64,000 bases of DNA from an uncultured virus (IMG/VR IMGVR_UViG_3300009678_000003). Taxonomy: Duplodnaviria; Heunggongvirae; Uroviricota; Caudoviricetes. Location of the stretch: the IMG/VR virus record IMGVR_UViG_3300009678_000003; one strand, written 5' to 3'. A model generated the notes under the pieces. It searched no databases, was not told the origin of the DNA, and saw nothing but the letters and a program-made list of their open reading frames with translations. Shown here piece by piece: positions 1-64,000 of this stretch (its first letter is position 1; each line of letters opens with the position of its first letter). Made by a program: the position numbers and the translations under genes.

Positions 1-263
1 TCAGATTCACAATAGGAGAGCAAGGCGCGTTTGATTTGACCCTCCAAGCCTTCGGACTTAGAGAAGAGCCATTCAAGCACAGCGCACGGTTCTCCTTCCT
101 TTGCCATCGTTCGAACCTGATGAGCGGTTCTGATTCTTTGGTCTTGCATGATGTAGTAGGAATCGACGAGATACCGGACTTCCTGCTTCGATAGAGTCTT
201 GGCGGCTTGCACCAAGTCCCGGCTCATCCTGATTTCAAGCTCTGCTGATTGTTGTTCGCTCAT
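1..263 (-). CDS. Tas/IS110-related (Nop-domain family) protein, N-terminal part; runs off window edge
   Basis: Manual translation MSEQQSAELEIRMSRDLVQAAKTLSKQEVRYLVDSYYIMQDQRIRTAHQVRTMAKEGEPCAVLEWLFSKSEGLEGQIKRALLSYCES; RBS AAGGAG upstream; helical region resembles the coiled coil preceding the Nop domain in IS110/Tas proteins; TIGR-like array directly upstream. Confidence 0.65.
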   Translation of the reverse strand, partial: MSEQQSAELEIRMSRDLVQAAKTLSKQEVRYLVDSYYIMQDQRIRTAHQVRTMAKEGEPCAVLEWLFSKSEGLEGQIKRALLSYCES

Positions 264-280
264 TTGGCTCCTTGTTTGAA

Positions 281-354
281 CGCTCCTGTATTTTGGTTCT
301 ATCTCGGTTTCTGGCTCGCTCTTTTTGAATGTTACTATCTGGCTTCATGGCTCA
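281..354 (-). ncRNA. TIGR-like array, two 36-nt units with two 9-nt spacers each
   Basis: Minus strand: AGCCA-TGAAGCCAG-ATAGTAACA-TTCAAAAAG-AGCG|AGCCA-GAAACCGAG-ATAGAACCA-AAATACAGG-AGCG; units 317-352 and 281-316. Confidence 0.7.
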
Positions 355-872: not shown

Positions 873-1085
873 CTAACTTAATTTCTGGCTGCATTTCAAA
901 GTCTCTGGTTTTTTGCAATAGCGATGAGCCGTACTGAAGGCTTTCCCGAAAGCGACAAACACGCTCACGCGCATGGGAAGAGGAATCTTCTGAACGTCAC
1001 CGCAATGCAGGCAGTGAAAGGATTGCGTGTCTGAATTTGCAATAACGTGGTCTGCCTTCATTTTCCCGCCAACCCATTCAGCCAT
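873..1085 (-). CDS. small Zn-binding hypothetical protein
   Basis: CLHC ... HRYC motifs. Confidence 0.45.
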   Translation of the reverse strand: MAEWVGGKMKADHVIANSDTQSFHCLHCGDVQKIPLPMRVSVFVAFGKAFSTAHRYCKKPETLKCSQKLS

Positions 1086-1556: not shown

Positions 1557-1747
1557 GGCTTCCTTCTTAACCGTTTAGCATCTCCATCCCGTTTTCCTTG
1601 CTCCCACTTCTTTGTGTTCTCAGGCGAAGAGAAAATAGAACAATGACAATTCTCCATGTTGGCTCCGTTCAGGCCACAGTCGAAGCCAAGCTTGTAAGGG
1701 TCACGCTCTTTCTTGTACTCGCTCAGGATTGATTCGATAGCTTTCAT
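1553..1747 (-). CDS. hypothetical protein
   Basis: ORF coupled (ATGA) to downstream gene. Confidence 0.55.
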   Translation of the reverse strand: MKAIESILSEYKKERDPYKLGFDCGLNGANMENCHCSIFSSPENTKKWEQGKRDGDAKRLRRKP

Positions 1748-1867
1748 GGCATCATCCCTCTCCCCCTAACTCAAAGTTTTCAGTCCCAAACAACCTCTCT
1801 TGCTTGCTCTCAACAACGGGTTTCAAGCCCCTGCCTGGCTCCTGCTTTGTCAGGCTCGTCCGGGTCT

Positions 1868-3040
1868 TCAAGCCTCTGCTGGCAGCGCTGAATCTCCTGA
1901 CGGGTCTGGGAGGTCATGGTATTGCATCTCTACCTGAACCTTGCTCATCCGCTTCACTGCCTGCTTGCTCAGGTACTCGAAATTGAGATCACAGCCCACG
2001 CCCCGGCGCTGCAGTCTGCTGGCAACGCGAATCACTGTGCCGCTTCCAACGAAGGGATCGAAAACAAGATCGCCGGGCCGGGATCCTGCCAAGATGCAAG
2101 GCTCAACCAATTTTTCTGGCATCGTGGCGAAGTGTGCGCCCTTCCAAGGTTGCGTCGAAATAGTCCAAACTGACCGTTTGTTCCTGCTCTCCGTAATAGC
2201 GCGGAAAGCATTCTGTCCGGTGTCTGCCATCGCTTCAGTCTTGCCGTTGAAGGAACCTTTCGGCGCGCTGACTCTTGGCTTGCCTGAAGACCTTCCAAGC
2301 TGATGCTCTCCCGTCTTACCCGTGTGGAATTGGCTTCCCTTGAAGCTACGCGGCTCGACACCGTGACGCTGTTCTGGTGGCCTGCCATCCATCTGCCAAG
2401 CTCCTTCGCTGGTGTAGGGACGCCTTGGGTCGTTCGTGACGCTCGGCTCTTGGATTGCGATGTGATCGAAATAATAGCGTTCAGATTTTGCCAGTAGAAA
2501 CAGGTACTCGTGGGATTTGCAGCATCTGTCTCTAACGCTCTCAGGCATCGGTCCCGGCTTCGACCAAATTATGTCCTGGCGCAAGTACCAGCCGTCGGCT
2601 TGTAGTGCAAAGGCGACGCGCCAAGGGATACCCACGAGGTCTTTAGCTTTTAGCCCGTGACTTTTCGGAGTTCCGTCACGATTGCGCTGGCCACGTTCAT
2701 CCACTATTCCATCAGCCCGACCCGACCCTGCCTGGTACGGACGCCCATAAGATTCGCCGCCGCCATTTCTCCCGTTGTACGTCCCACTGCCGCCTTTACC
2801 TGGATCACTGGCATAAGAATCGCCCAAATTAATCCATAACACGCCATCATCCTTCAGCACGCGCCGCACTTCTCGAAACACGGCTACCATGTTTGCAACG
2901 TACTCCTCGGGCGTCCGCTCTAACCCCATCTGGCCAGGAATGCCATAATCCCTCAATCCCCAATAAGGCGGCGACGTCACGACCGTTTGCACCGTGCCGC
3001 TCGCTATCGGAATGTGTCTCGCATCTGCCTGGCAGATCAT
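1868..3040 (-). CDS. N4-C/N6-A DNA methyltransferase (beta class)
   Basis: VTSPPY motif IV, HFATMP and DPFVGSGT motif I; TGATG coupling with upstream gene. Confidence 0.92.
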   Translation of the reverse strand: MICQADARHIPIASGTVQTVVTSPPYWGLRDYGIPGQMGLERTPEEYVANMVAVFREVRRVLKDDGVLWINLGDSYASDPGKGGSGTYNGRNGGGESYGRPYQAGSGRADGIVDERGQRNRDGTPKSHGLKAKDLVGIPWRVAFALQADGWYLRQDIIWSKPGPMPESVRDRCCKSHEYLFLLAKSERYYFDHIAIQEPSVTNDPRRPYTSEGAWQMDGRPPEQRHGVEPRSFKGSQFHTGKTGEHQLGRSSGKPRVSAPKGSFNGKTEAMADTGQNAFRAITESRNKRSVWTISTQPWKGAHFATMPEKLVEPCILAGSRPGDLVFDPFVGSGTVIRVASRLQRRGVGCDLNFEYLSKQAVKRMSKVQVEMQYHDLPDPSGDSALPAEA

Positions 3041-3378
3041 CACAAAACCTTCCAGCCTTTCAGAACCTTGATGCACTCATCCAGCGACCGCGCGACCTCA
3101 TACTTCACTCCGAGCCGCTGGCAGCTCGCCTGAAACGCCAACTGATTCGGATTCAGCATCCCTTTCTCCGTCTTCAGCTCAATCCAGCCGCTTCCGAGGT
3201 CCCATGTGAAAACAAAGTCTCCCGCTCCTGCAATCACGCCTTGCCGCTTCAGGTTCGAGGCTTCAATCAGGCTCCGGCTGCCGCCGTTCGGGACCGCGGT
3301 ATAGACGCAGCGGGGTTTGGCAGCGAGAAGGTATTGAAAGAACGCGGCGCTCAGTTGGGCTTCTTCGCGGTTACGCAT
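3040..3378 (-). CDS. VRR-NUC domain nuclease
   Basis: AVPNGGSR...LKRQGVIAGAGDF...WIELKTEKG..NPNQ. Confidence 0.85.
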   Translation of the reverse strand: MRNREEAQLSAAFFQYLLAAKPRCVYTAVPNGGSRSLIEASNLKRQGVIAGAGDFVFTWDLGSGWIELKTEKGMLNPNQLAFQASCQRLGVKYEVARSLDECIKVLKGWKVL

Positions 3379-3737: not shown

Positions 3738-3977
3738 TCATTGTTGCTTCCTCTCCCGATCACACGTCCTGCACGCCCGCGTCCCGTCAATCGGATGGCG
3801 GTACGTGTTGGCCTCGGTATACTCATGACCGGCAGGGCAACTCGTTTTCCGAGAATTCCAGTGTCCCTTCAGCGGAGCCCTGTGCCTGAGATACCGTTCG
3901 TGGCGGCGTTGCTTGACGGTCATGGTCGTCACCCCGCCTCCGACTCCGTGAATGGCAGTGCTGGTGCATCTCTCCAC
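3738..3977 (-). CDS. small Zn-finger protein (likely start at MTVKQ)
   Basis: KTSCPAGHEYTEANTY...RACRTC, a domain often appended to phage HNH proteins. Confidence 0.6.
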   Translation of the reverse strand: MERCTSTAIHGVGGGVTTMTVKQRRHERYLRHRAPLKGHWNSRKTSCPAGHEYTEANTYRHPIDGTRACRTCDRERKQQ

Positions 3978-4992: not shown

Positions 4993-5568
4993 TCAACACT
5001 CTCCTAAAATTTGTCGTTTCAAAGCTGCAAGTTTGTCTTCTTCTGATTGGGTCTCTCCGTAGAGAGCAACGATCCAAGTGCGGTCACCCTTCCATTTTGG
5101 CGGAATCAAGGTGCCGTGTAGCGCCTGGCTGCTGCAGATCCTAAGTGGTCCGGCAATCTCCTGCACCTGCCCAGAAGATACCGGATCAGAACTACCACCG
5201 TTACACGGCCGCCCGTCCGCCGCCGATTTCCAATAGGCTATTTGGGCACCAGAAGCCACGGCTGCGCGGTAAACCGCTTGCTGGCTTTCGGGCCATCGGG
5301 AAACGTAAGAAGCAACAGCTTTCTTCCAGTAAGTTTCGTCCCCGTACCCGTACCCGTCTCCGGACCCGGACCCGTACCCGTACCCGTCCCCGTCCCCGGA
5401 CCCGGACCCGGACCCGTACCCGTACCCGTCCCCGTCCCCGGACCCGGACCCGTCCCCGGACCCGTACCCGTACCCGTACCCGTCCCCGGACCCGTACCCG
5501 TACCCGTACCCGTCCCCGGACCCGGACCCGTCCCCGGACCCGGACAGCGCGTTCAACTTACTTGCCAT
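4993..5568 (-). CDS. protein with GSGDGYG low-complexity N-terminus
   Basis: ~70 aa G-x repeat followed by globular domain. Confidence 0.75.
   Translation of the reverse strand: MASKLNALSGSGDGSGSGDGYGYGYGSGDGYGYGYGSGDGSGSGDGDGYGYGSGSGSGDGDGYGYGSGSGDGYGYGDETYWKKAVASYVSRWPESQQAVYRAAVASGAQIAYWKSAADGRPCNGGSSDPVSSGQVQEIAGPLRICSSQALHGTLIPPKWKGDRTWIVALYGETQSEEDKLAALKRQILGEC
5335..5545. repeat. 6-bp period tandem repeat (ccgtac/ccggac/ccgtcc) encoding G-Y/G-S/G-D
   Basis: Directly visible. Confidence 0.95.
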
Positions 5569-8974: not shown

Positions 8975-9978
8975 CAGAACGCCTCCTGCTGATTCAAGGC
9001 GTCACCGATCTCGCCTTCGATAACATCAGAGTCCGGGTTTGGAGCCGTCTTCACTTTGGATTTGGCTTTCTTGGACTCTTCCTTGGAAGCCTTGGCGATG
9101 AAGCTCTTGATCTGAGCGAGCTTCTTGGCTACGGCTTCGTGCGTCGGGCTGGAATCGATGAACGCTTGGGCTGAAACGCGCTGCTCCTCTGTGAAGACTG
9201 GCAGCTTCATCAGCTTGCTGATGTCGCCGGCCATTTCCTCAAGCGTAGCGTCCGTGTGTCCGTTACCGTTTGGTTCGGCTACCTGAGAAGGGAAGTCCTC
9301 GACATCCTGGGTAAAGATTCCAGACGAACGAGTGACTCCTAGCGTGGCGTCCACCTTCGCCCGCTTCTTGGCCATCTTCAGGATCGTGTTCTTGAGCGTA
9401 GGGATGTCGTCATTCTCGACGCGGCCGGTCTGTTGGCCTTCGATGGACTTGTCTCCGTCCTTGAACTTGGCACCACATCCGCCTTTCTTGGCGAAGCACA
9501 ACCATCCGCCACCGTATTCAGCTTTCCCCTTGATGATCGTTGCCTTGCTGCAGTTTGGGCACTTGCGTTGCCCATCTCTCCACCGATACCGGCCCTCATA
9601 GCTGTTGCAACTTCCCATGCCTGTTCCGACGATCCCGCCGTCTCGCTTCGAAAGCAGGGTGCAGCGGATCTCGTAATCGAAAAGATTGCGGTCCCAATCC
9701 TCGATGCGGCTGGTGATCTCGTAGGTATCGGCAAGCCCGTATAGTTCACAGAGCTTGTCACTGCCTGGCTTGTAGAGTGTCGGCTTGGGTGTGCCGGGGA
9801 TGATGCCGTAGTCCTCGTCCTTTACCAGATACTCTTTGACGAAGGCCTGGAAGTCCTGAAGCCGCTGACGCGCCACTTCCAGATTCATGACTGGCGTCAA
9901 CAAAAGGTTGGTCGATGGCCTGACGGCAATCGCTTGTTGCTTTTCTTCTGTGGTTTGATCTATCATTGGGTCGTTCAT
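8974..9978 (-). CDS. recombination / ssDNA-annealing-type protein
   Basis: DYGIIPGTPKPTLYKPG...NTILKMAKKRAKVDATL...FTQDVED; next to Gp157. Confidence 0.65.
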   Translation of the reverse strand: MNDPMIDQTTEEKQQAIAVRPSTNLLLTPVMNLEVARQRLQDFQAFVKEYLVKDEDYGIIPGTPKPTLYKPGSDKLCELYGLADTYEITSRIEDWDRNLFDYEIRCTLLSKRDGGIVGTGMGSCNSYEGRYRWRDGQRKCPNCSKATIIKGKAEYGGGWLCFAKKGGCGAKFKDGDKSIEGQQTGRVENDDIPTLKNTILKMAKKRAKVDATLGVTRSSGIFTQDVEDFPSQVAEPNGNGHTDATLEEMAGDISKLMKLPVFTEEQRVSAQAFIDSSPTHEAVAKKLAQIKSFIAKASKEESKKAKSKVKTAPNPDSDVIEGEIGDALNQQEAF

Positions 9979-24414: not shown

Positions 24415-25926
24415 GTGGCGCGCCTCGGACGGTCTCATCCATCTCACCCGATCATCAAGCGGGCCGTTCCTGCATCTCCTGATGTCACGGTAGCTCTCAC
24501 AGGAGTATCGGCGACCGTCTCTGTCGGAACTTTGGGAGTCGCGTTATCCCTGGCGCTCTCCGGGCTCTTGGGAACTGGTTCAGCCGGAACCTTAACGCCG
24601 TCGCATTCTGTTCCGGTTAGCGGCGTCAGTTCCACCGTTTCAGTAGGAACGCTTTCCCCGTCTCACTCAATACCAATAACCGGTGTGGCAAGCACCGGGG
24701 CAGTTGATACGCTGGGAGTCACGAAGAGCGGAAGTCTTGCTCTGACCGGTATAGAGGCGACTACTTCCGTCGGTAGCCTCACTCCTTCCAGTGAAGTTCC
24801 AGTTTCAGGAAACAGCGCCACCGGAGAACTTGGGACTCTTGACTATACCAAGAGCGGCTCCTTAGCTCTCACCGGAGCATCGTCAACCGGTTCTGTCGGC
24901 AGTCTCACGCCTTCGAACACCGTCTCGGTTTCAGGCAATAGCGCGACCGGGTCGGTTGGGACTGTAGGCGTCGCAGAGAGTGGCGAAGTTGCTCCCACAG
25001 GCGTTGAGGCGACGGGCTCAGTTGGGTCGCTGGTCCCGTCCGTTAGCGTTCCAATCTCGGGCAATGCTGCGACGGGCGCGGTTGGAACCGTCGGGGTTGC
25101 CGAGAGTGGGAATGTTGCTCCGACCGGAGTAGAGGGCACAGGCGAAGCCGGATCAGTTCTTGCGTCAGTCAGCATTCCCATCTCTGGGGTTGCAGCCACC
25201 TCTGACGTTGGGACGCTTCAGCCGTCTTCTGAGGTTCCCTTAGCCGGTATCGGTGCAACTGGCAGCGTCGGAACCGTCCTAACCGGCAACGATACTGTTG
25301 CGGCCATCACTGGAGTTGAGGCCACAGCAGCATCAGGCGACCTCACACCCTCGGTTTCAGTAGCGCTGACGGGAGTCGAAGGCGCTGCTTCTGTCGGAAC
25401 CGTCGCCCCGAGCTCCTCCGTAGCACTGTCCGGGCAAGAAGCAACCGCCGGCGTCGGGACGCTCAGCCCGAGCACGACTGTTGCATTAACCGGCAACCTG
25501 GCAACCGGTTCGGTCGGGACCGTCAGCACTGCTGGCGATGAAATAGAGGCAGTCACCGGCAATTCAGCTACCGGCACGGCGGGAAACGTCGCGCCATCGA
25601 CTGCCGTAGGGCTCACCGGCACGGCTGGCTCTACGGCAACCGGCTCTCCTGCAGTCGTTCTTTCCGTTGCCCTGAGCGGCGTTAGTGCCGCCAGCGCAGC
25701 GGGCTCAGTTGCTCCTGCTGGCGACAATACGGTTGAGCTCACGGGCGTATCCGCTACGGGCTCGGTCGGGACAGTCACGGCGAGTGGCGGGTTTGTTTCT
25801 CCCACTAACCCATGTCGTATCGTAGTCGTTGCATCAGCATCACGGCGCGTCATAGTCGCAAGCTCAGATCGCCGCATTGATGCTCCTTCTAGAAACCGAA
25901 CTGTTGTTGTGCCTGAGTGCCCTTGA
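24415..25926 (+). CDS. repetitive fibre-like protein (~20-22 aa repeat, ALTGVxATGSVGTL)
   Basis: About 20 visible repeats. Confidence 0.75.
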   Translation: MARLGRSHPSHPIIKRAVPASPDVTVALTGVSATVSVGTLGVALSLALSGLLGTGSAGTLTPSHSVPVSGVSSTVSVGTLSPSHSIPITGVASTGAVDTLGVTKSGSLALTGIEATTSVGSLTPSSEVPVSGNSATGELGTLDYTKSGSLALTGASSTGSVGSLTPSNTVSVSGNSATGSVGTVGVAESGEVAPTGVEATGSVGSLVPSVSVPISGNAATGAVGTVGVAESGNVAPTGVEGTGEAGSVLASVSIPISGVAATSDVGTLQPSSEVPLAGIGATGSVGTVLTGNDTVAAITGVEATAASGDLTPSVSVALTGVEGAASVGTVAPSSSVALSGQEATAGVGTLSPSTTVALTGNLATGSVGTVSTAGDEIEAVTGNSATGTAGNVAPSTAVGLTGTAGSTATGSPAVVLSVALSGVSAASAAGSVAPAGDNTVELTGVSATGSVGTVTASGGFVSPTNPCRIVVVASASRRVIVASSDRRIDAPSRNRTVVVPECP

Positions 25927-28778: not shown

Positions 28779-29027
28779 ATGAAACGAAGAGACTTTCTAC
28801 AATCACTAACGGCCGCTCCAGTTGCAGGTATGACGGCGCTCTCTATCTGGAAGCCTGCTCCAAAGATTGTGGGGATCATGGCTGATTATTCTTACGCGCG
28901 CCATAACGTCTCTGGGAACATCTTCGAAGCCTTCAAACCCGGGGAGATGATTTGGATTAAAGGCGGAACCTACTCTCCTGTAACCGCTAAAGACTTGCTC
29001 AAGGAATGGCCGCCCTCCTCAGCCTAG
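28779..29027 (+). CDS. small protein with Tat-like signal
   Basis: MKRRDFLQSLTAAPVAG. Confidence 0.6.
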   Translation: MKRRDFLQSLTAAPVAGMTALSIWKPAPKIVGIMADYSYARHNVSGNIFEAFKPGEMIWIKGGTYSPVTAKDLLKEWPPSSA

Positions 29028-29707
29028 TGACTGGAACTCTGAATCGTCCGGCCAGTCTTCAGCGGCTTGTCAAATCGATTAAAGCTCATACTCCGGTGCC
29101 GTGGGAGTTGGTCATTTCCGACGCTTCGGATGAGCCAATCGAGAATGTTTTCCAGTCAGCCAACATCACAATCCTTCCCGAGCGGCCACGGCTTGGGTTC
29201 GTGAAGGGCTACAATCGAGCGTTCCGCTATGCAACCGGGACCTGGGTTGTCTTCCTGAATGACGACGCTGAGGTGCAACCTGGCTACGCGGAAGCGGCCG
29301 TCGGCTTCATGGAAGCGCATCCCGATGTAGGCTTGGGAGCGCTCTATTACGCGGAGGGCAAGTTGCCATACAGGACGTGGAGCTGCTATGGAATGCTCTA
29401 TGCAAATTTCGGCATCATCAGCCGCGAGCTAGGGAATCAAGTCGGCTGGTTTGACGAAGAACTGACGATGTACGGCTCTGACAATTCGCTGGCTTTTCGC
29501 GTTCTCTTGGCCGGGAAGGGCGTTGCAAGTATCCCGGGCGCGCGCGTCTGGCATCACGTTCAGCTTGATCAGTGGAAAAAGGAGAACCAGCGGCACCGCG
29601 TCGCTGACGGAAGCAAGTTGCATCAGAAGTATTTCCCAAGGGTAGATCAAATGCGAACCACATATCGAGCTACCCGGCATTTGTCTGGACCGGAGATGCT
29701 CAGATGA
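29006..29707 (+). CDS. GT2 family glycosyltransferase
   Basis: LVISDASD, KGYNRA, VFLNDDA, GWFDEELTMYGSDNSL. Confidence 0.88.
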   Translation: MAALLSLVTGTLNRPASLQRLVKSIKAHTPVPWELVISDASDEPIENVFQSANITILPERPRLGFVKGYNRAFRYATGTWVVFLNDDAEVQPGYAEAAVGFMEAHPDVGLGALYYAEGKLPYRTWSCYGMLYANFGIISRELGNQVGWFDEELTMYGSDNSLAFRVLLAGKGVASIPGARVWHHVQLDQWKKENQRHRVADGSKLHQKYFPRVDQMRTTYRATRHLSGPEMLR

Positions 29708-29840
29708 AAAGAGATGTCTCTATAGAGTGCGACTGTTCGAGCTACCGCGACAACATCGGTAAGGTGAACGGGCCGATCATCAACGAAGGATTGCGCTATG
29801 GAACCCAAGGGTACACAGGCGAGACTTTCAGGTTCTGCCC

Positions 29841-31079
29841 TTGGTGTGGGAAACCGCTCGTGGAAAAGTCCGTGCATCACACCGAGGTTGCCAACTGAAA
29901 CGCTTGCATGTGGGTTCGGGCTCCGTTTACTTGCGAGATTGGATCAACGTCGATGTCAAGGGGCCGCGCACCTTCCTAGCCTCTAATCGCCCTGACTTGG
30001 TAGAGAAGTTCGGCACGACAGACGATCAGTATTACGCACGTCACCAAGACAAAACGATTGACACAGTTCGCCAGGGGCCGCTGGATCAAGACTACGTTTG
30101 CGACGCTTACGGCAGTTTTGGCAATCTGCCCTTGCCCTATTGGGAAATAGACGAAGTCCTCGCCAGACACGCATTCGAGCACCTCTCGTTCAACGAGGCC
30201 AGGTCCGCTCTGGACATGCTGGACAGCGTGATGAAGGTCGGAGCCGTCCTGCGGCTCGACGTGCCTGACCACGAGGAAACGGTACGGCTTTTGCAGGAAA
30301 CTCGTGATCCGTTTTATGCTCGCCATTTGCTCGGGCCGAGGCGTGACCAATACGGATATCACATGCGCTCTTACACGAGGCAGGGCTTGATTGACCTCGT
30401 GGAAGACCACGGCTTCTCCTACATCTGCGAGGAGCCAAACATACATTTCTACCCGGCCTTCTGCCTTCGCTTTCACAAGCTCGATCTCATGGCGGCTCGG
30501 GATTATGTCAAGTTGCCGTATTCAATCGAGGACCATTGGAAGGTTCTGGAGATTGGGCCTGGTGCAAACCCGTTCTCACGCGCGGACGTAGTTGTCGATT
30601 GCAACCCAGCGCATCTTGAGCCTTTGACGGCGAAGCGAACGGTCTGCGCTGACCTTGAGCAGGGCCTCCCGGAGCTTGGAGATAAAGAGTTTGACTATCT
30701 GTTTTGCGCGCACGTGTTAGAGCATGTGCAGGACCCTATCGCTTGCGCTCGAACTATGAGCAGAATTGCCAAGAGAGGGACGGCAGTTTTCCCCAGCGTG
30801 ATGAAGGAGTCGCTCTTCAATTTCGAGGAAGCGGCGCATCGCTGGTTGATCCTTCCTCATCCAAATGGGGGTCCTCCGGTATTCGTGCGGCGCAACGGAG
30901 ATATTGAGCGTTTGAAAGACGCAGAGGTGATGGGCTCCATGTGCCGGCTGTTCCGTACCGGGCCGAATCGCATGGGTGAAGAGTCAAGGCATTTGCGTCG
31001 CTGGTTTCGGGAGAAAGAGCCGTTGCTTGATGTGGTTTGTCACTGGCAGGACAAGCTTGAGTTGATGGTGATTCAGTGA
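29841..31079 (+). CDS. tandem SAM-dependent methyltransferase-domain protein
   Basis: LHVGSG...HAFEHL and LEIGPG...HVLEHV. Confidence 0.85.
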   Translation: MVWETARGKVRASHRGCQLKRLHVGSGSVYLRDWINVDVKGPRTFLASNRPDLVEKFGTTDDQYYARHQDKTIDTVRQGPLDQDYVCDAYGSFGNLPLPYWEIDEVLARHAFEHLSFNEARSALDMLDSVMKVGAVLRLDVPDHEETVRLLQETRDPFYARHLLGPRRDQYGYHMRSYTRQGLIDLVEDHGFSYICEEPNIHFYPAFCLRFHKLDLMAARDYVKLPYSIEDHWKVLEIGPGANPFSRADVVVDCNPAHLEPLTAKRTVCADLEQGLPELGDKEFDYLFCAHVLEHVQDPIACARTMSRIAKRGTAVFPSVMKESLFNFEEAAHRWLILPHPNGGPPVFVRRNGDIERLKDAEVMGSMCRLFRTGPNRMGEESRHLRRWFREKEPLLDVVCHWQDKLELMVIQ

Positions 31080-31236
31080 TTGCTATGCAGAGGTTCGGAG
31101 GTAGGTTGATGGATCAGATCAACCCTATTGCCGTCGTTTGGGAATGCGGCAAGTGCGGAGACATCAAGACTTCGACGATTGGTGATGACAAAGCGGCTCT
31201 TCAAATTATGGGGAAGACCTGCGAGAAATGTAAACA

Positions 31237-32406
31237 GTGGATTTACAAACTCTCTGGGCATATGGACGCAGAGCAACACGCTGCTTTCCTCGCAGTCCAA
31301 AAGAAAAAAGAGTGATCCCGCGCGCCGCGATTTTAGACACTTATTACCCTGACTTTCTAAGCACTTGGCAGCTCAATCCAGAGGCTGGCTACGAAGCCGA
31401 GCTGCAGCGGCTCCTGGCTTTCTCATTCGGAACTGCGGACTACTACTCCCGCAACCTCCGCGCGCTGGGCTGGGAAACGCTGGATATCATCGGGAATTAC
31501 GCGCCGCTGCAAGAACAATGGGCTAGAGAGAATGATTGCAGAGCCGCATATCCGTGGAGAATTGTGCTGGAGCAAATCAGGGCCTTCAAGCCTGCCGTGG
31601 TTTTCCTCCAGGATTTGTCATTTCTAAACCATGAGTCTCTAGCGATTCTGAAAAGGGAAGGCTATTTGATGACTGGTCAGTGCTCGTGCCCCATGCCCCT
31701 TGCGGACAAGGTGCGACAATGCGACGTGCTGTTTACCAGTTTCCCTCACTACCTCAAGCGGTTTCAGGATCTAGGAGTCAAAGCGGTCTACCTGCCGCTG
31801 GCCTTCGAGCCGGACGTACTGACGCGGCTTGGGCCGGAAGAACCAGAACGTGATATTGATTGTCTCTTCGTCGGTGGCATCGGCTTCCACTGGACAGATT
31901 CCTTGCCATTGCTCGAAACGCTGGCGAGAGAGATTCCGTCAATGCAGTTCTGGGGCTACGGCTATGAGAACCTTCCGGCTGGGAGTCCTATACGTAAGAA
32001 GTATCTAGGGCCCGCCTGGGGACTAGACTATTACAGGCTTCTGCATCGCGCCAAGATCGTTGTGAACCGCCACGGGGCTGTAGCTGGTCCGTATGCGAAT
32101 AACCTCAGACTTTTTGAAGTCACGGGCTGTGGAGCCTTGCTATTCACCGAATGGCGGAAGAATCTTGACGATTTCTTCACCGCGGATGAGTGCATTGCGT
32201 ACCAGAATCCAGAGGAAGCTGCTCGCCTCGTTCGTCATTATTTAGATCATTGGACGCTCGGCAAATCTATTGCTGAGGCCGGCCAGCAGAAGACACTGAC
32301 GCGGCACACCTACCAGCAGCGGATGCCATTGGTTTCTGAGACACTTCAAAAGAATGCCTGCAATCTCGACACATTACCGCCAACTGAAGCCAGAGGAAGT
32401 CGCTGA
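31237..32406 (+). CDS. CgeB-like GT-B glycosyltransferase (start likely 31312)
   Basis: LPLAFEP, AKIVVNRH, NLRLFEVTGCGA, HTYQQR. Confidence 0.85.
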   Translation: MDLQTLWAYGRRATRCFPRSPKEKRVIPRAAILDTYYPDFLSTWQLNPEAGYEAELQRLLAFSFGTADYYSRNLRALGWETLDIIGNYAPLQEQWARENDCRAAYPWRIVLEQIRAFKPAVVFLQDLSFLNHESLAILKREGYLMTGQCSCPMPLADKVRQCDVLFTSFPHYLKRFQDLGVKAVYLPLAFEPDVLTRLGPEEPERDIDCLFVGGIGFHWTDSLPLLETLAREIPSMQFWGYGYENLPAGSPIRKKYLGPAWGLDYYRLLHRAKIVVNRHGAVAGPYANNLRLFEVTGCGALLFTEWRKNLDDFFTADECIAYQNPEEAARLVRHYLDHWTLGKSIAEAGQQKTLTRHTYQQRMPLVSETLQKNACNLDTLPPTEARGSR

Positions 32407-33091
32407 AGTGGCAGCACTGTACGCCGACGCTTGGATGGATGAGAGGATCCCACAGTTGCAGTACGAGGCGTGTGTTCAGCCGGAGCTGGAAGCGTGGAGA
32501 CAAGGGAAGCCGGTTGCGCCGTATGAAGCGCTCGTTCGCTGTTTTTCCCATATTGGCGTGCAGCTCCCTGGGGCTCTGTTTGGTGTCAGGGTTCTTGAGG
32601 TTGGGGCTTCCTGTGGGTACAACTTGGAAGTGATGAGGTTGTCAGGATTCGATCAGATACATTATCGCGCTCTGGACTTCTCTCCAGCCTACCAGCGTCT
32701 TGCTAAGCGGCTCTGGCCTGACATGCCGTTCGATGTCGGAGACGCGCGTGCGCTGCCGTATGAAGCCGGGGCCTTCGATATCGTGCTCAGCGGCGGGGTG
32801 CTTCTCCACGTCCGCGAATACGAGCAGGTGATTGTTGAAACCTCCAGGGTTGCGAGTCAGTTTGCAATCTTTCACAGGACGCCAGTTTGGAACAAGGAGA
32901 CGGCCTGGTTCCTGAAAGAGGGCTACGGCATACCGATGATTGAGGCTCGATTCAACGAAGCGGAATTGCGCGGGCTCTTCGACGAATACGGCCTGCCCGT
33001 GATAGCGGCGATCGACGTTGCTCCGGCTCAAGACGGCGTGATTCACCGGAGTTACCTTTGCAAGAAAGGGCTGTTTCATCATTCGGTATGA
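32354..33091 (+). CDS. class I SAM methyltransferase
   Basis: VLEVGASCG, LDFS, GDARALPY. Confidence 0.88.
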   Translation: MPAISTHYRQLKPEEVAEVAALYADAWMDERIPQLQYEACVQPELEAWRQGKPVAPYEALVRCFSHIGVQLPGALFGVRVLEVGASCGYNLEVMRLSGFDQIHYRALDFSPAYQRLAKRLWPDMPFDVGDARALPYEAGAFDIVLSGGVLLHVREYEQVIVETSRVASQFAIFHRTPVWNKETAWFLKEGYGIPMIEARFNEAELRGLFDEYGLPVIAAIDVAPAQDGVIHRSYLCKKGLFHHSV

Positions 33092-33305
33092 AGAAACTTT
33101 ATCAATTACTTTGCATCGGTCAGGCATGCGGACGGTGGTTTCATAGCAGGCACCAAAGGACGCTTGTCTATCGTAATTGCACAGTGAGTTGGTGTGCTGT
33201 CTGTCAGGATTGGATAGAGAGGAATGCGCGCATGCTGGGCTACACCAAAACAGACTTCGACCTGAATCACGAAGCCGTAGCAACGCATGATGACAGGATC
33301 AAGCC

Positions 33306-34169
33306 TTGGTTGTTCGGGCTATGAGCGTTTTAGTTAGACGTTATTGCAGCTTGTGGGATTCGCGCTTTCTTCCGCAAGGCTTGGCCCTCTATGACTCTTT
33401 GAATCGCCATTCTAGTCGTCCATTCAGGCTCCACGTTCTGGCGATGGATGATGAATGCGCGGCGGCGCTCAATAGTTTGGCATTGGACCACATGGACGTG
33501 TTTTGGCTCAGCGCCGTAGAGCGATTCATGTTCAACGAGCCAATCAAAGACTCAAGAACGTGGCAAGAATACTGTTGGACGTGCGCCTCAAATTTTGCTC
33601 ATTGGCTTTTGCCTCATAGTGAAATTACTTATCTGGATTCTGATTGCTGGTTCGCATCCGATCCAGAAGCCGTCTTCGCAGAGATCGGCGAGCGCTCAAT
33701 CGGAATTGTCCCACATAGATTTCCTCCAGAGCGGAAGCACATGGAAGTTAACGGAAAGTTCAACGTGTCTTGGGTGACTTTCCGAGGGGCGGTCGGCTTC
33801 AAGTGCCTAGAGAAGTGGGCGCGACAGTGCCGAGAGAAATGCTCTGCTAAAGAAGGATGCGGCGATCAGAAATACTTGGACGCCTGGCCAACAGACTATC
33901 CCGGCGAGGTCTGCGAGATTCAGAACATCGGCGTGGGGACCGCGCCTTGGAACGTCTCTCAATATAGGGTTGTTGATGGCCCGTGGGGAGTGAGGCTCAA
34001 TGGACAACCGCTGATATTTTTTCATTACCACGAGTACCAGCACAATCAACGCCTGACGAACTACAAGCTGCGCAAGGAAGACCGCGACCTGATTTACGCG
34101 CCCTACATTGAGGCGGTGGAAGCGGCGAAGGCGCGAGTTGAATCTTTGATGATGGAGGCAATTCAATGA
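33306..34169 (+). CDS. GT-A fold glycosyltransferase
   Basis: FLPQGLALYDSL, TYLDSD, DQKYLDAWP, APWN, FFHYH. Confidence 0.8.
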   Translation: MVVRAMSVLVRRYCSLWDSRFLPQGLALYDSLNRHSSRPFRLHVLAMDDECAAALNSLALDHMDVFWLSAVERFMFNEPIKDSRTWQEYCWTCASNFAHWLLPHSEITYLDSDCWFASDPEAVFAEIGERSIGIVPHRFPPERKHMEVNGKFNVSWVTFRGAVGFKCLEKWARQCREKCSAKEGCGDQKYLDAWPTDYPGEVCEIQNIGVGTAPWNVSQYRVVDGPWGVRLNGQPLIFFHYHEYQHNQRLTNYKLRKEDRDLIYAPYIEAVEAAKARVESLMMEAIQ

Positions 34170-34567
34170 ACACTTATTTGAATTCAAGAGCGCGAATCAA
34201 CGGAACGAAGATCGGCGATCAGTTCTGTGTCTACACCAACGATGAGCGCACCAGCTTTGCCGTTGAGTCGGATCAAGAGCATCCTCGGGCCTTTCCCATC
34301 AGGGTGTATTCGGATAACAATAATCGTCGGTTTCTAAAAGAGAATGCCGAAATTATCGATATCCTGAAAATAACCGGCATCCTGAAAGGCACGCATGAGG
34401 AGCCCGCCTCCCGAGACGTTTCCATCCGTAAGGTGCAACCGCCAGCCAGCCGAGCGCCAATGTCAATGGCAAACGAAGATCCAAAACCTCAACCTCCACC
34501 AAAGCCTGACTCTACGCCAGCAAAACGAGACGAGCCGCAACCTAAACCTGTGCCGAAAAAGAAGTAG
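34166..34567 (+). CDS. hypothetical protein, Pro/Lys-rich tail
   Basis: ATGA coupling, GGAGG RBS. Confidence 0.6.
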   Translation: MNTYLNSRARINGTKIGDQFCVYTNDERTSFAVESDQEHPRAFPIRVYSDNNNRRFLKENAEIIDILKITGILKGTHEEPASRDVSIRKVQPPASRAPMSMANEDPKPQPPPKPDSTPAKRDEPQPKPVPKKK

Positions 34568-34761
34568 GTAGACGTGAAGACCATCATTCGGATTGACTCT
34601 GCTGAAGTTATTCTTGAGTTTGAATTTCCCTACGTGCAGATGGCCATCTGCGTGGGTGATCAGATGCAATCCTGCCTCACTCTGGATATCAAAGAGGCAG
34701 AAATGCTCCGCGCTAGCTTGCAAGCAATGGTTGATGTTCTTCAGACGCAGGACATCCTGGA

Positions 34762-35445
34762 GTGACAACTGTCTCAGTTGTCGTTGCCACCTACGGCCCT
34801 GACCGAGCCTTCTGGGATGGCCTAGCACGTCGTGCCATCGGCTCCGTCATCAACCAGACGCAGAGGCCCACGGAATTTCACCGCGTGCATGTTGACGAGC
34901 CGAACGCGCTCCATATTGCTAGGAATCGCGGGGCGGCGATGTCTGAGACAGAATTCCTCGTGTTCTGCGACGCAGATGACACACTTCACCCCGAATACGT
35001 CGAAGCCATGCTGGCAGGCGAAGGCGATGTCCGTATCCCAAACCGCGAGCGCTTCTACTGGGACGGTTCGCACAAGCCGGTTGACCAAATCAAGCCGGGT
35101 GGCGACCTGCTCCGGCACAGCCATATCCTAATCGGGGCCATGGTCCGGCACGATCTATTCAACAAGGTGGGCGGATTCGAAGACTTGCCGATCTGGGAAG
35201 ACTGGCATTTCTGGTGCAAGTGCTGGGTGAATGGCGCGACGATGATCCAATGTCCGAAGGCGATCTACCAAGTCCACATCCGGCAGGGGAGCCGCAATCA
35301 ACAGATGGGAAACATCGGTCAGGCAGCACGTATTCGGCTGGAGTTTGAGCCGTTGGCGAGGGCCAAGGGGTTGATGGCAGAGCAGAGAAACGCTGGCGAG
35401 CAGAAACGGCGGTTTGGGATTAGTCGGGAGGGAGCCACGACATGA
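34762..35445 (+). CDS. GT2 family glycosyltransferase
   Basis: VSVVVATY, ARNRG, FCDADD, GGF..WEDWHFW. Confidence 0.9.
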   Translation: MTTVSVVVATYGPDRAFWDGLARRAIGSVINQTQRPTEFHRVHVDEPNALHIARNRGAAMSETEFLVFCDADDTLHPEYVEAMLAGEGDVRIPNRERFYWDGSHKPVDQIKPGGDLLRHSHILIGAMVRHDLFNKVGGFEDLPIWEDWHFWCKCWVNGATMIQCPKAIYQVHIRQGSRNQQMGNIGQAARIRLEFEPLARAKGLMAEQRNAGEQKRRFGISREGATT

Positions 35446-43255: not shown

Positions 43256-46200
43256 ATGGCATCTGAAAACGAAATCCTGAAATACATCATGGAGGCGGAC
43301 CCGAGCAAGGTCCTAGTCGCCTTCAGACAAATTGAAGCGGCCCAAAATAAAGCTGCCGCGAGCGCCAAGGGGCCCGGCCGAGAAAGCGCTGCAGCCTTTG
43401 CTCCGTTGACTCAAATGATCAACGAGACGAGGGCCTCTCTCGACAAACTAAGTGCTTCAGCTCAGCACTTACGCTTGACGAAAACTGCAGGCTCAGAACT
43501 GGCCGACTCATTACTTGGAGTCGAGCAAAAGGCAAAGGGCGCGGCCACTGCGGGCAGCATGATGAGCAGTGCCTTCGGACAAGCTCGGAATGTACTCGCT
43601 GCTCTCGGTGTGGGCCTAGGCCTTCGAGAGTTAGTCGGATTCTTTAACGAATCGATTGATGCCAGTGTGCGTCTCAGAGGTGCTCAGGCTGGCTTGCAGG
43701 CCGTTTCAAAAAACCTTGGCATGAACTTTGGTGAGGCCTCAAAAGCGAGCAAGGATTTAACAAAAGATGGAATCCTGAATTTAACAGACTCTTCGAAGGG
43801 TCTACAGAATTTGCTTGCTAGTGGCTTGAATCTGAAGTTTGCCACGGAGTTGATGAACAAGAACAAGGATGCGGCTGTATTCAATCGGCAGTCACACTTG
43901 GGCTTGTCTGAATCCATCAAGGTCTTCACCCAGGGATTCAAAGACGAACTTTCAACGCTCACCGATGCGACGGGCGTTTCAATCAACTACGGCCGAGCCC
44001 TTGAGGGCACTTTCAAGCTCGCTAAGGCAGGACAGATTGATTATACCCAATATCGTAACATCCTAAGCAGCACCGAAATTGAACACGTCAAGCTCGCCAT
44101 CGCGCATACCAATTCAGCTGACAAACTAGACAAACAGTCGAAGAGCATTCTTGCTGGAATTGGCTTCCTCAAAGAGTTGGGCTTATTCTCTGGCAACGCT
44201 GCGAGCGCGTCTGAGGACTTCGCTATCAAGCAGGCACAACTCCAGAATCAGATGGAGCTGACCAGAGCGGCTATCGGCGAAAGATTGCAGCCTGCCTATC
44301 TCGGACTCCTCGCAATCACTCTTGATGTCCTAAAAGCTACCAAAGACTTATTTGAGTTTTTTGGTAGCACTGGAGGCATCAATGAATACACGGGGGCCAT
44401 CGGCGCAGGTGCTGCGGCTTGGGCGCTTTGGAGGTTCGTGCCTTGGTCAGCAGGCGTCACTCTAATTGCTAATGCAGTTAGCTTTTTAGCTCTGGCTCTC
44501 AAGGGCCTTGCTGCTGGTGAAGGCTTGACAATTCTCGGGCTTATAGGAGCGAAGCTGGCGCAAATCACTGCAGGTAGCGCGGCAGTGAGCGCGGCCGGTC
44601 TGATTGGTCTAGGCGCTTCGTTTGGCGCGCTCGCAGGAACAGGAGTCAGCGCGTACAAATCTATCAAGAACGAAGACTTAAGCAGGGCTCAATCCATCGA
44701 AAGCCTAGTAGGTCTCGTCAATACCCTCCAAAACCGCGGCATCAATGCCAAGCCCTTTCTCCAGCAGTTCAATGCCGGAAAGATTTCTGAAGATGAAGCA
44801 AGGCGTCAGCTCGGAATCCTCGCTAATGAAGACTTCAAAGCAAACCGCAGTCAATACCCAGGCGCGCCGCCGTCGAGAGCCGGCCTAGCCGGAGGAGGTA
44901 CGGTTGATCCAGATGCCTTCAAAAAGATTGCAGCGGCTCGTCAGTCGGTAGACGAGCAGATTGCCTCACTCAATAGAAAGGCTCTGAACGGTATCGCTGC
45001 TCAGTTTGATGAAATAGACCAGCGATTCAGGAAGATTATCGAAGCCGAGCAAAAAACTGGCGGTGCCGTTCGTCCAGGTACCATCACGGCCGCAGAGCAA
45101 GCCGCCACAGCCGCCAAGATTGCCGCACGCAATGAAGTGTTTGCCAAGGCGGGTCTAACGGTTTCCGAAGAGGGCGGCTTCGGAACTTTTAGTCTCGCCG
45201 CTGGTGCTGCCAAAGGTCTGCCTTCACAGGAAGAAATTCAGAAGGAAATCAACGCGACTCTTGAAGTCGCCAACAAGGCATACGTTATCCAGATCGATAA
45301 CGAGTTCAAGCTCAAGCAGGCGATGTTTGCAACTGAGAATGAGCGCCTAGCCCGTATCGGCAACATGGAAGCCGAAATTGAAGTCATGGACGCGGCAGCA
45401 ATGGGACGGAACAAGCATGAGAGCCAGCTTTTTGAATTGTTAGCCAAGCAGAAACAAGCAAGTGCCGCAGTATCCGATCCCGCCGAACTGGCGGTATTAG
45501 AAAAGTTCCAAGGCCGGAAGCAACTTGAATTGCTCCGCAATCAATATGACGAAACATTCGACAAGATCAGGACTCAGGCCGAAGGAGTTTTTGATGCCAT
45601 CTTCCTCCGGGGCAAGAAGGGCTTTGCGGGGCTGCTCGACTACATCAAGGGAACATTCATCACCGGGATGAAGGATCTGTTCGGGAACCTAGTTGCAACG
45701 CTCTTTACTGGTGCGCGGCCCGGAGGCGGTGGTGCAGCTCAAAGTGGCGGTCTATTCGGTGGCTTGTTCTCTGGTATATCTGGCCTGTTCGGCGGTGCTC
45801 GCCAGGGAGGCGGTGGCGGAGGTCTGTTCAGCGGCCTGGGTGGTTTATTCGGTGGCGGTGGAGGAATCGCAGGGACGCCGCCTTTCCTGCCTGCCAGGGG
45901 CGGTTTTGGTGGAGGCTTGGGCAGCTTGTTGGGGCTCGGCGGTACTGGAGCAGGCTTGGCCGCTGGCGGCGCAGCATTAACCCCAGGCGTCGCCGGGGCC
46001 CTGCCAACGACCTTTGCTAATACCGGGCTGCTTCCTGCTGGGGGAGCTGCCGGCAGTGCGGCCGGAGGCAGTTCATTCCTTGGCCTCTCAGGAGCGCAAC
46101 TCGGAGCATTCTTTACCAACCCGTTCACGATTGCGGCCGGTATCGGTATTGCCGCAACCATCGCTTATCTGAAGCTACGCAAGACCAGGGAAGAGAAGTT

Positions 46201-46747
46201 CCGGGCAGAGATCCTTAGGGACTTCGCCATCAACGTTCCCGACAACAAGATCCTGAAACAGATCAAGAACTATGGCGAAACCGTCTTCGGCAAGGACGCG
46301 GACAAGAAGCGCTTCGAAACCTTGCGGCTCGATCAGATTCAAGGCCTGCTCCTGAACTACGCGACAGCCAGCGGCCAGGACCCGTCACGCTTGCCCATCT
46401 ATCAGAAATTCTATGGCGGTTCGGCCGGCCGGTCGCTGAGCTTCGACCCAAGCCGCGGCGTTCCTGCGTTTGAGTTTGGGACACCCTACGTTCCGCGCAC
46501 CGGTCTAGCGATGGTGCATCAGGGAGAGGCCATCATCCCCGCTGCGCAGAATAAGGGCACTGTCGGCGGTAATTTCATCTTCAATATCGACGCTCGTGGA
46601 GCCACTGCTGATGCTGCTTCGGCTATCAAGTCAGCCGTTCGGCAAGTGATCCGTGAAGAACGACGCTACGTCACAGAACAGGTTGGTACAGCTATCAATA
46701 GCGACTACAGGCGGCAGAACATTTTAGGCGGGTTAATCGGCACCTAG
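43256..46747 (+). CDS. tape measure protein
   Basis: 1163 aa, Ala/Gly-rich helical; C-terminal GTPYVPRTGLAMVHQGEAIIP. Confidence 0.92.
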   Translation: MASENEILKYIMEADPSKVLVAFRQIEAAQNKAAASAKGPGRESAAAFAPLTQMINETRASLDKLSASAQHLRLTKTAGSELADSLLGVEQKAKGAATAGSMMSSAFGQARNVLAALGVGLGLRELVGFFNESIDASVRLRGAQAGLQAVSKNLGMNFGEASKASKDLTKDGILNLTDSSKGLQNLLASGLNLKFATELMNKNKDAAVFNRQSHLGLSESIKVFTQGFKDELSTLTDATGVSINYGRALEGTFKLAKAGQIDYTQYRNILSSTEIEHVKLAIAHTNSADKLDKQSKSILAGIGFLKELGLFSGNAASASEDFAIKQAQLQNQMELTRAAIGERLQPAYLGLLAITLDVLKATKDLFEFFGSTGGINEYTGAIGAGAAAWALWRFVPWSAGVTLIANAVSFLALALKGLAAGEGLTILGLIGAKLAQITAGSAAVSAAGLIGLGASFGALAGTGVSAYKSIKNEDLSRAQSIESLVGLVNTLQNRGINAKPFLQQFNAGKISEDEARRQLGILANEDFKANRSQYPGAPPSRAGLAGGGTVDPDAFKKIAAARQSVDEQIASLNRKALNGIAAQFDEIDQRFRKIIEAEQKTGGAVRPGTITAAEQAATAAKIAARNEVFAKAGLTVSEEGGFGTFSLAAGAAKGLPSQEEIQKEINATLEVANKAYVIQIDNEFKLKQAMFATENERLARIGNMEAEIEVMDAAAMGRNKHESQLFELLAKQKQASAAVSDPAELAVLEKFQGRKQLELLRNQYDETFDKIRTQAEGVFDAIFLRGKKGFAGLLDYIKGTFITGMKDLFGNLVATLFTGARPGGGGAAQSGGLFGGLFSGISGLFGGARQGGGGGGLFSGLGGLFGGGGGIAGTPPFLPARGGFGGGLGSLLGLGGTGAGLAAGGAALTPGVAGALPTTFANTGLLPAGGAAGSAAGGSSFLGLSGAQLGAFFTNPFTIAAGIGIAATIAYLKLRKTREEKFRAEILRDFAINVPDNKILKQIKNYGETVFGKDADKKRFETLRLDQIQGLLLNYATASGQDPSRLPIYQKFYGGSAGRSLSFDPSRGVPAFEFGTPYVPRTGLAMVHQGEAIIPAAQNKGTVGGNFIFNIDARGATADAASAIKSAVRQVIREERRYVTEQVGTAINSDYRRQNILGGLIGT

Positions 46748-62972: not shown

Positions 62973-63788
62973 TTAGGGCGTAGGCTTCCGCTTCGCTGCG
63001 AGGAAAGCGGAGATCTGTCTACCAACGCGCAGCTCTCCATAGCTTGTAGACGCATCATCACCTTTGCAGTAAATGTGCGCTTGGCACAGCAACCCAACCG
63101 CCTCGTCCAGCCTGCGTTGCAGGGCGTGAATAGTCGTATCACAAGCGTTGTGTTCGGCCTTAAACTTCTCATCCTTGCCATCGGATTTGAAGAAGGCAGA
63201 CTGCTCGTCAAGAATTTCACCAAGCTGACGCTGGCTCTGGGCGAGCTGCTGCGCTAGGTCGTCTCGTTCGTACCGAGTAACCTGTAATTGACCTAGCAAA
63301 GACAACCCTTCTGAGATAGCTCTGTTAGTCAGTGACGAGTCTTCAGCTTCTTGATATGAACTGAGCCTGTCCGCCCCGCCTTCAGATTGTGCTGTGGTCC
63401 CGAGCCGTTCTTCAGGCGTTGTTTCTGCTGGCGTCTCACCCTTCTGGTTCTTATTTTTGAACGCATAGCCAACCCGCTTTTTGCGTACCTCATCGTCACG
63501 CTGTTTTGTCATCCCAACCAAATCCCTCTTCAGCCACCCAATCTCCTCCCGCGCCTGCTGGAGTTCGGCGGCAAGCGCATCCAATCTCTGCTGTCTGTCA
63601 GCCATTCGAATCTTTGCGTCATCTACGATCTCTTGAAGCCGCTCGTTTTCGGCTTGGAGCACGGCGAAGTCGATGGTGTAGGCCGCTTTGAGCAACTTTC
63701 CCATCCACTTGCTCGGACAGTTAAAATCGTTGTGTAAGTTAATACCAACGGCTGCTTCAATCGCTTCCTCACTCGGCTCATTTGGCAT
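62973..63788 (-). CDS. coiled-coil hypothetical protein
   Basis: 271-aa ORF, AAGGAG RBS. Confidence 0.6.
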   Translation of the reverse strand: MPNEPSEEAIEAAVGINLHNDFNCPSKWMGKLLKAAYTIDFAVLQAENERLQEIVDDAKIRMADRQQRLDALAAELQQAREEIGWLKRDLVGMTKQRDDEVRKKRVGYAFKNKNQKGETPAETTPEERLGTTAQSEGGADRLSSYQEAEDSSLTNRAISEGLSLLGQLQVTRYERDDLAQQLAQSQRQLGEILDEQSAFFKSDGKDEKFKAEHNACDTTIHALQRRLDEAVGLLCQAHIYCKGDDASTSYGELRVGRQISAFLAAKRKPTP

Positions 63789-64000
63789 TAGCTCGCTCCT
63801 TGCGCTTCTACAGTGGATTCAATCTTCTCATCAACAAGGACTTGGCAAACCCTGACACACTCATCACAAATGTAAGCTGACTTACCAGCCACAAGTTTAC
63901 GAACCTCATTTCTCCACTTTGAACAAAACGAGCAGCACATCTCGGCTGGAAGGCTTCGCTCGAAACCTTCTAGTACCTTGAACGGGATAGTGACATCGCC
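63788..64000 (-). CDS. ClpX C4-type Zn-finger protein, 5'-truncated by window
   Basis: Manual translation ...[27 protein letters not shown]... Confidence 0.75.

Follow-up and report, generated by a model that had tools for sequence, protein, structure and literature searches.

Introduction

Arrays of tandem interspaced guide RNAs (TIGR) consist of units of about 36 nt, each made up of an edge repeat, a 9-nt spacer A, a loop repeat and a 9-nt spacer B, and TasA is described as binding 36-nt guide RNAs (tigRNAs). The arrangement of a target is exemplified by TaTasR, whose tigRNA1, AGCCA-UGCAAGCCC-UGAAACCCA-UUGCCUUAG-UGCG, is listed by Faure et al. 2025 (Table S3; PMC12045711), and whose optimised target, TGCAAGCCC·CTAAGGCAA, consists of spacer A and then spacer B reverse-complemented (PMC12045711). 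Gaps of 1-2 bp between the two target halves are tolerated, and as dimers, Tas proteins open 18 bp of the duplex and introduce a sharp bend. Transcription is repressed reversibly, as directed by the guide, by TasA and by catalytically dead Tas proteins, including from inside an open reading frame (ORF). According to the field authors, genuine TIGR targets are hard to identify, and the short spacers yield many false matches. Here we describe a TIGR-tasA system in a 64,000-nt stretch of DNA (the window) from an uncultured virus of the Caudoviricetes (IMG/VR IMGVR_UViG_3300009678_000003), together with two neighbouring sites in a tape-measure-like gene of the same phage that may be targets of its guides.

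The phage system is of the dual-repeat kind, for which 65,635 tigRNAs are catalogued in TIGRFinder/TIGRSafari, and among the known phage TIGR-TasA systems it is an ordinary one. Like FpTasA and MbTasA (PMC12045711; Xu et al. 2026, bioRxiv 10.64898/2026.09.09.750476), it pairs a solo Nop-domain Tas protein with 36-nt units in the edge, spacer A, loop, spacer B order, has its tas gene flanked by arrays on either side with one unit overlapping the tas 3' end, and by analogy would be expected to bind and repress without cleavage. It differs in that no natural target is known for FpTasA or MbTasA, whereas a candidate pair of imperfect targets lies here in a late gene of the carrier itself. SpTasH, from Salicola phage CGphi29, has nearly the same units, of the form AGCCA-N9-AGACAACCA-N9-AGCG, compared with AGCCA-N9-ATAG(A/T)A(C/A)CA-N9-AGCG here; the tigRNA termini, AGCCA...AGCG, are identical (synthetic SpTasH tigRNAs, Table S3, PMC12045711) and the Nop fold is common to both, but SpTasH bears an N-terminal HNH nuclease and cuts DNA, whereas the Tas protein of this phage, P0002, is without a nuclease domain. 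A third point of comparison is wcaD, the one E. coli genomic site described as cut by TaTasR, which was engaged in vivo with spacer B paired at 9/9 and spacer A at 6/9, the same split as at the first of the two sites reported below. The wcaD match is accidental, lies in a host foreign to TaTasR and was scored through nicking, in contrast to the native genome, the paired sites and the protein unable to nick that are found here.

In this report we show that one guide from each of the two arrays of the phage has its best whole-genome match within the same 49-bp stretch (45419-45467), with the perfectly matched halves facing each other. With one site in each of two independent positions, a genuine link of the guides to this segment is more likely than not. 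We weigh this relation against chance and against a relic of spacer origin, and consider what it may mean for the function of TasA in phages.

Results

Two guides nearly match adjacent sites in a tape-measure-like gene

The phage carries a total of 20 guides, two upstream of tasA and 18 downstream (Table 1). Spacer A of upstream unit 1 followed by the reverse complement of its spacer B gives the predicted target TGAAGCCAGCTTTTTGAA, and at site 1 the B half (45428-45436) agrees with it at 9/9 positions and the A half (45419-45427) at 6/9, with mismatches A1, A2 and A3, of which A2 would be an rG-dT wobble. The 15 identities are contiguous (AGCCAGCTTTTTGAA, 45422-45436), and all 18 letters align when one extra base is allowed (45418-45436, TGAGAGCCAGCTTTTTGAA). 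With up to one mismatch permitted, AGCCAGCTTTTTGAA occurs once in the window, and any such match was obtained in only 1/100 shuffles.

A second guide, downstream unit 4 (AGCGAGCCA-AGGCGCTTG-ATAGGTCCA-AGAAACAAG-AGCG, at 3916-3951 of the public contig L191), matches site 2, which lies in the same ORF 13 nt from site 1 and is the only match of 16/18 or better of all 20 guides in the 66,643-bp genome. Its B half (45450-45458) is again matched at 9/9 and its A half (45459-45467) at 7/9, with mismatches A1 and A5, the latter a possible rG-dT wobble. On the plus strand the layout is thus (A1 6/9)(B1 9/9)-13 nt-(B2 9/9)(A2 7/9), in which both perfect B halves face inward and pair with opposite strands while all five mismatches fall in the outer A halves, a distribution with a chance of ~0.02 by our own arithmetic if mismatches were evenly spread. 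These two are the only sites in the genome with one half perfect and at least six matches in the other, and each guide is specific for its own site, the cross-matches being 8-9/18.

The proximity of the two sites was assessed in several ways. When the other 19 guides were shuffled 20,000 times, a 16/18 match fell within ±50 nt of site 1 in 5 cases and a 15/18 match in 58. Run against 1.53 Mb of unrelated phage DNA, the real 20 guides gave 27 matches of at least 15 (1.18 per genome-equivalent), 2 of at least 16 (0.087 per genome-equivalent) and 0 clustered pairs, rates from which a match of at least 16/18 as near to site 1 is expected with a frequency of ~1.5e-4. If the score is ignored and the best match is placed uniformly, the probability that it falls within ±50 nt of site 1 is about 1.8e-3. 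Corrected for looking elsewhere, the chance of such a pair over 33 genomes is estimated from the same unrelated-phage rates at ~0.007.

Observations that weigh against targeting

Most of the results in this section count against the segment being a target; those that do not are given beside them. The earlier note on this DNA had rested on site 1, and the identities that it read there, 15 contiguous and all 18 with a one-base gap, are borne out by the window sequence; it was also right that upstream unit 2 has no match, the best, 14/18, being at chance level. (This 14/18 match lies at window 24915-24932 on the minus strand, with spacer A at 9/9 and spacer B at 5/9.) Its figure of 1e-4 holds for one fixed 15-mer but was under-corrected for the number of guides, which is 20 and not 2, and the significance of the match was overstated, since in one genome every 20 guides yield ~1.0-1.2 matches of at least 15/18 by chance. 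With only the two units of the window considered (1500 shuffles or 1500 random 18-mers), the chance probability is 0.084-0.10 for a match of at least 15/18, 0.0007-0.002 for a contiguous run of at least 15, and 0.017-0.025 for one half at 9/9 with at least 6 in the other. For all 20 guides (150 shuffled arrays over the whole genome), a match of at least 15/18 turns up in 64% of the arrays (mean, 1.0 guides per array) and a half-perfect match with at least 6 in the other half in 19%; a run of at least 14 appears in 3.3% and a run of at least 15 in 0/150. Control pairings of the same spacers yield 1.3-3.3 matches of at least 15/18 per 20 targets, and one mis-paired combination, B1 with the reverse complement of A2 (spacer A of unit 2), reaches 15/18 at site 1 itself, since the outer half is matched at 6/9 by A1 and by A2 alike. 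Site 1 by itself is at chance level and is weak evidence, because the phage has 20 guides rather than 2. The proposal that the guides are aimed at the tape-measure segment draws real support from the second guide, at 16/18 and 13 nt away, but not from site 1 alone; the match also adds nothing to the two-strand spacer logic that it was said to support, which had already been published. Counting rG-dT and rU-dG as pairs was rejected as a test because it is too permissive, with 20 matches of at least 16 expected per array.

Further points concern the design of the comparison and the sites themselves. The ±50-nt window and the score thresholds were picked after site 2 had been seen. Both sites have the arrangement and zero gap expected of a natural target, and pair at 15/18 and 16/18 rather than over the full 18; no exact site for any of the 20 guides is present in the genome. 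Position 45419 is a first codon position, and an exact site 1 in this register would create an in-frame TGA, so that an orthologous allele cannot carry exact site 1 unchanged. In favour of a target, the reading frame would survive an exact site 2, with one synonymous change and one Ala-to-Ser change. In the published experiments, double mismatches impair TasR cleavage and abolish TasH cleavage, and spacer A, the mismatched one at both sites, is reported to initiate engagement.

For a comparison across the family, 37 Tas-bearing phage records were rebuilt, and 390 distinct units were extracted from them by a strict pattern; 4/37 records yielded no unit, including G001, a fragment of this phage without tas. 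Matches of at least 15/18 in the record of origin were found for 20/390 guides, as against 3.3% of 7,800 shuffles, and matches of at least 16/18 for 0/390, so that the enrichment for homologous arrays, whose absence the earlier note had named among its refuting conditions, was not found. Half-perfect matches with at least 6 in the other half were found for 4/390, against 0.7% in shuffles. When all units were compared with all records, 46 matches of at least 16 were obtained where ~37.5 were expected, with 0 exact. A pair of matches of at least 15 within 100 nt occurs in this genome only (0/32 others tested), and pairs of matches of at least 14/18 across the family number 10 against 5.5 in shuffles, come mostly from one GC-rich record and are not significant. 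The guides of the family show no general targeting of their own record or of the other sampled records. One guide of a related phage (G004) matches at 17/18 in a small membrane-like gene of its relative G021 (25203-25220) and at 15/18 in the G004 orthologue (9922-9939); this pattern, though suggestive, was not used as support, matches of at least 17 being as frequent in shuffles.

Nor was a relative with exact sites found in the collections searched. The tape-measure segment is present in IMG/VR as two identical copies only, with no diverged relative, was not found in Joint Genome Institute (JGI) metagenome contigs, and has no tblastn or blastn similarity in the other 36 Tas-bearing records; among GenBank phages, the protein has one weak match, of 31% identity over 19% of its length. 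The exact 18-mer of guide 1, with a gap of 0-2, has 7 matches in IMG/VR, all in unrelated ORFs, and that of downstream unit 4 has 8, in 5 independent groups, all unrelated. Both core halves at native spacing gave 0 matches in the genome contig collection, and the two inner halves at native spacing gave 9 in IMG/VR, 2 from this phage and 7 from unrelated AT-rich phages. For the unit 4 target, the genome contig collection holds 89 matches, none resembling the window. About 30 of the 89 are exact unit 4 targets with a 1-nt gap in a dsbA-like gene conserved over many Pseudomonas species (L247 and ~30 other loci of L248-L326); as a target of unit 4 this gene was treated as chance because the phage host is not identified.

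The TIGR-tasA locus

The window comprises 64.0 kb of a 66,643-bp circular genome and is without 2,643 nt of it. The circle was closed because the public contig L191, 100% identical to window 1-3263 and 63082-64000, matches both window ends; the missing 2,643 nt hold the remainder of tasA and the 18-unit downstream array, and another contig, L190, bears the same arrays. Of the records, the nearest is G001, which represents this very phage (99.997% identity over window 14524-53598) and therefore offers no independent view of the tape-measure sites.

The upstream array was found by reading the sequence and with a regular expression; Tandem Repeats Finder (TRF) and a general repeat search did not report it. 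On the minus strand, window 281-356 consists of CATG, the 5'-truncated edge repeat at 353-356, then unit 1 (AGCCA-TGAAGCCAG-ATAGTAACA-TTCAAAAAG-AGCG) and unit 2 (AGCCA-GAAACCGAG-ATAGAACCA-AAATACAGG-AGCG), terminating in AGCG 19 nt ahead of the tasA ATG. The array thus has units that run from an edge repeat through spacer A and a loop repeat to spacer B, and its reading, CATGAGCCA ... AGCG-TTCAAAC, agrees with the published TIGR array description. These array and spacer boundaries, the adjoining Tas gene and the spacer A plus reverse-complemented spacer B arrangement had all been given correctly in the earlier note, the last being the one that Table S3 of Faure et al. 2025 gives for TaTasR tigRNA1 and its target. 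In the downstream array, the first unit overlaps the tasA stop codon, and 2/18 units have a 1-nt length change. Period-36 arrays lie beside tas in 79/82 of the related loci fetched.

Each of the four spacers in the window is preceded by CCA, the box C sequence, or by ACA; the element that follows them, where box D would be looked for, is G(position 9)-A, as compared with the UG described for ParTasR. Across 724 units from the related loci L002-L082, both spacers have G at position 9 in 85-88% of cases and A in 10-14%, so that nearly every predicted target of the TasA family has a central G-C step. Such a bias could reflect a requirement on the target that has stayed hidden, or a structural base resembling box D, in what is described as a motif-free system. 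The ribosome-binding region of tasA (window 264-290, minus strand) reads AAGGAGCCAAATG, and the 3' part of the edge repeat, GAGCCA, sits on the ribosome-binding site. The two-unit array forms part of the tasA leader, so that release of its tigRNAs would sever the tasA mRNA 19 nt ahead of the start codon; this position suggests possible autoregulation of tasA.

P0002 is a protein of 275 aa that occurs on contigs of up to 66,796 bp. By sequence it matches TasH (E-value 7.4e-10) and TaTasR (1.3e-9) in the PDB, and a profile of 10 family sequences strengthens these matches to 1.5e-22 for TaTasR (TasR residues 116-320) and 1e-13 for TasH, with IS621 at 1e-4; the alignment of P0002 to TaTasR begins at about TasR residue 116. 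Its AlphaFold model (pLDDT 86.5, pTM 0.83) has TasH or TasR chains as all of its top 10 Foldseek fold matches (TM 0.56-0.66), with IS621 next. A Pfam search of P0002 detected no nuclease family (HNH, RuvC), and its score against PF02371, 20.9 bits, is just below the 21.3-bit cut-off; the Nop Pfam family has no match among the 81 window ORFs scanned. PHROGs labels P0002 'transposase' (phrog_4285, E-value 2e-43). P0002 combines the Nop or IS110 C-terminal-domain (CTD)-like RNA-binding domain with the coiled coil by which membership in the family is recognised. Because of these sequence and fold matches to TasH and TasR, and without a nuclease family, P0002 is by sequence and modelled fold a TasA-type Tas protein, Nop-domain and nuclease-free. 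IMG/VR contains 428 relatives. Proteins from 5/6 related-locus records looked up are entered in Table S1 (ProteinInfo sheet) of Faure et al. 2025, where the rows displayed look similar to P0002. The C-terminal loop of P0002 (residues 258-268, outside the window) is LGHAHMIEPE, and the family consensus is LGHAHYIxPP, a difference that might concern the published Y/H dyad for tigRNA processing.

The gene that holds both sites and its surroundings

Both sites lie in an ORF of 43256-46747 (Table 1) that has no Pfam match and a single PHROG match of unassigned function. By language model it falls next to tape-measure clusters (score 0.97). Ahead of it lie a minor-tail gene and two overlapping ORFs, and behind it a J-like tail fibre gene. 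That it encodes the tape-measure protein is a well-founded inference, not a family assignment. On its 3' side come genes for the tail tip and the fibres, followed by those for lysis, and no sigma-70-like promoter was seen in 45200-45700. The tasA gene belongs to a divergent, leftward gene block that is presumably early.

Table 1. Features of the TIGR-tasA locus and of the candidate target segment (window coordinates unless stated)
Feature	Position	Strand	Remarks
tasA, 5' part	1..263	minus	first 87/275 codons, through position 3; remainder outside window
Upstream TIGR mini-array	281..352	minus	two 36-nt units: unit 1 317-352, unit 2 281-316
Unit 1 spacer A, TGAAGCCAG	339..347	minus	
Unit 1 spacer B, TTCAAAAAG	321..329	minus	
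Unit 2 spacer A, GAAACCGAG	303..311	minus	target not found, best 14/18
Unit 2 spacer B, AAATACAGG	285..293	minus	
Downstream TIGR array	L191 3807-4460, outside window		18 units, 3' of tasA
Tape-measure-like ORF	43256..46747	plus	1163 aa; holds both sites; named from size, position, language-model neighbours
Site 1, candidate near-cognate target of upstream tigRNA 1	45419..45436	plus	reads GAGAGCCAGCTTTTTGAA; 15/18 ungapped
Site 2, candidate near-cognate target of downstream unit 4 (spacers AGGCGCTTG, AGAAACAAG)	45450..45467	minus	16/18

Two other features of the window may be mentioned. At 5337-5542, CGTACC is repeated 34 times in tandem inside an ORF (4993-5568, minus strand) with a weak TrAA12-like Pfam match, and at 29006-35445 a cluster of glycosyltransferase and methyltransferase genes, which may serve modification of the virion or cell surface, stands amid the structural gene block.

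Discussion

On balance, and with modest confidence, we favour the view that the 49-bp segment is a genuine, functional near-cognate target of TasA-tigRNA binding. Dimers of TasA carrying the two 36-nt tigRNAs would open the duplex at 45419-45467 and base-pair with both of its strands, and because TasA has no nuclease, its effect would come from occupancy alone, which would obstruct late (tail, lysis) transcription or other transactions on the DNA. In the genome of the phage itself, where spacer B is fully and spacer A partly paired, weak or partial binding would be expected, and for engagement at such partial pairing the wcaD site provides a precedent; full binding would be expected on a variant genome with exact sites. 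The scheme presumes that the guides are expressed and processed, that binding takes place and that transcription is affected. The system could then serve in either of two ways, which we regard as about equally likely: as a weak brake that times the phage's own late genes, or as a full block on close relatives, sibling phages with exact sites, from which the carrier would be protected by its spacer-A mismatches.

The strongest alternative, though a rather unlikely one in our estimation, is coincidence, by which chance matches of 15/18 and 16/18 came to lie close together by accident and the real targets are in the host, in plasmids or in unrelated phages. In a search space of 133 kb (both strands), about one match of at least 15/18 per array is what chance supplies; the 390 guides of the family are not enriched for matches in their own or other sampled records, the 32 other genomes tested have no clustered pair, both sites are imperfect, the thresholds and window were post hoc, correction over the 33 genomes puts the chance of one such pair at ~0.007, and short spacers, as the field authors caution, yield many false matches. 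Coincidence has more difficulty with the second site: a test conditional on site 1, which the earlier note had already named, is satisfied in only 5/20,000 shuffles, and the rates in real non-cognate DNA give a similarly low expectation. It must also account for the confinement of all five mismatches to the A halves and for the specificity of each guide for its own site.

A relic of spacer origin, in which the guides were once copied from this stretch or that of a sibling and have since drifted, leaving a site without present function, seems to us improbable. Similarity above chance yet short of identity is what such an origin would leave behind, the one-extra-base alignment at site 1 looks like an indel that followed divergence, and the field authors state that the origin of TIGR spacers is not established and that no adaptation genes are known. 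The two guides, however, belong to separate arrays, one being upstream unit 1 and the other downstream unit 4, which makes a single local capture event unlikely; neutral decay should scatter mismatches over both halves rather than place every one of them in the A halves, and none of the 390 related-phage guides shows such a trace in its own record. An RNA target, with both spacers on the mRNA, was rejected, since the halves with perfect matches are on opposite strands.

Comparable strategies are reportedly found among CRISPR systems, namely repression by Cas9 with tracr-L or scaRNA, CreTA, and phage mini-arrays directed against rival phages. In these, an incompletely matching guide is said to bind without destroying the DNA, or guides are aimed at rivals that differ slightly, as proposed for near-cognate binding by TasA; the protein family and the guide architecture are different. 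Because TasA has no nuclease, incomplete pairing would not be needed here to avoid self-cleavage. In its most far-reaching form, the favoured view would make this segment the first natural TIGR-Tas target, with early TasA and a convergent guide pair, one from each array, acting on a 49-bp operator within the late operon of the phage, spacer B fully paired and spacer A deliberately under-paired, and the outcome a reversible brake on late genes together with a full block on siblings having exact sites; taken as a whole we consider this unlikely. Our literature search, at the level of its listings, found no publication that reports a natural or self target of TIGR-Tas.

Should the pair prove to be due to chance, it would still serve as a warning that single 15/18 TIGR matches are to be expected about once per genome per 20 guides. 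The natural aim of TIGR-Tas guides is a problem that the field authors call open, and the segment described here provides a concrete object on which to test it, consisting of a 49-bp DNA, two 36-nt RNAs and one 275-aa protein. Such a test would bear on whether TasA acts as a regulator of phage genes or as a weapon against siblings, and on how far its guides tolerate mismatches.

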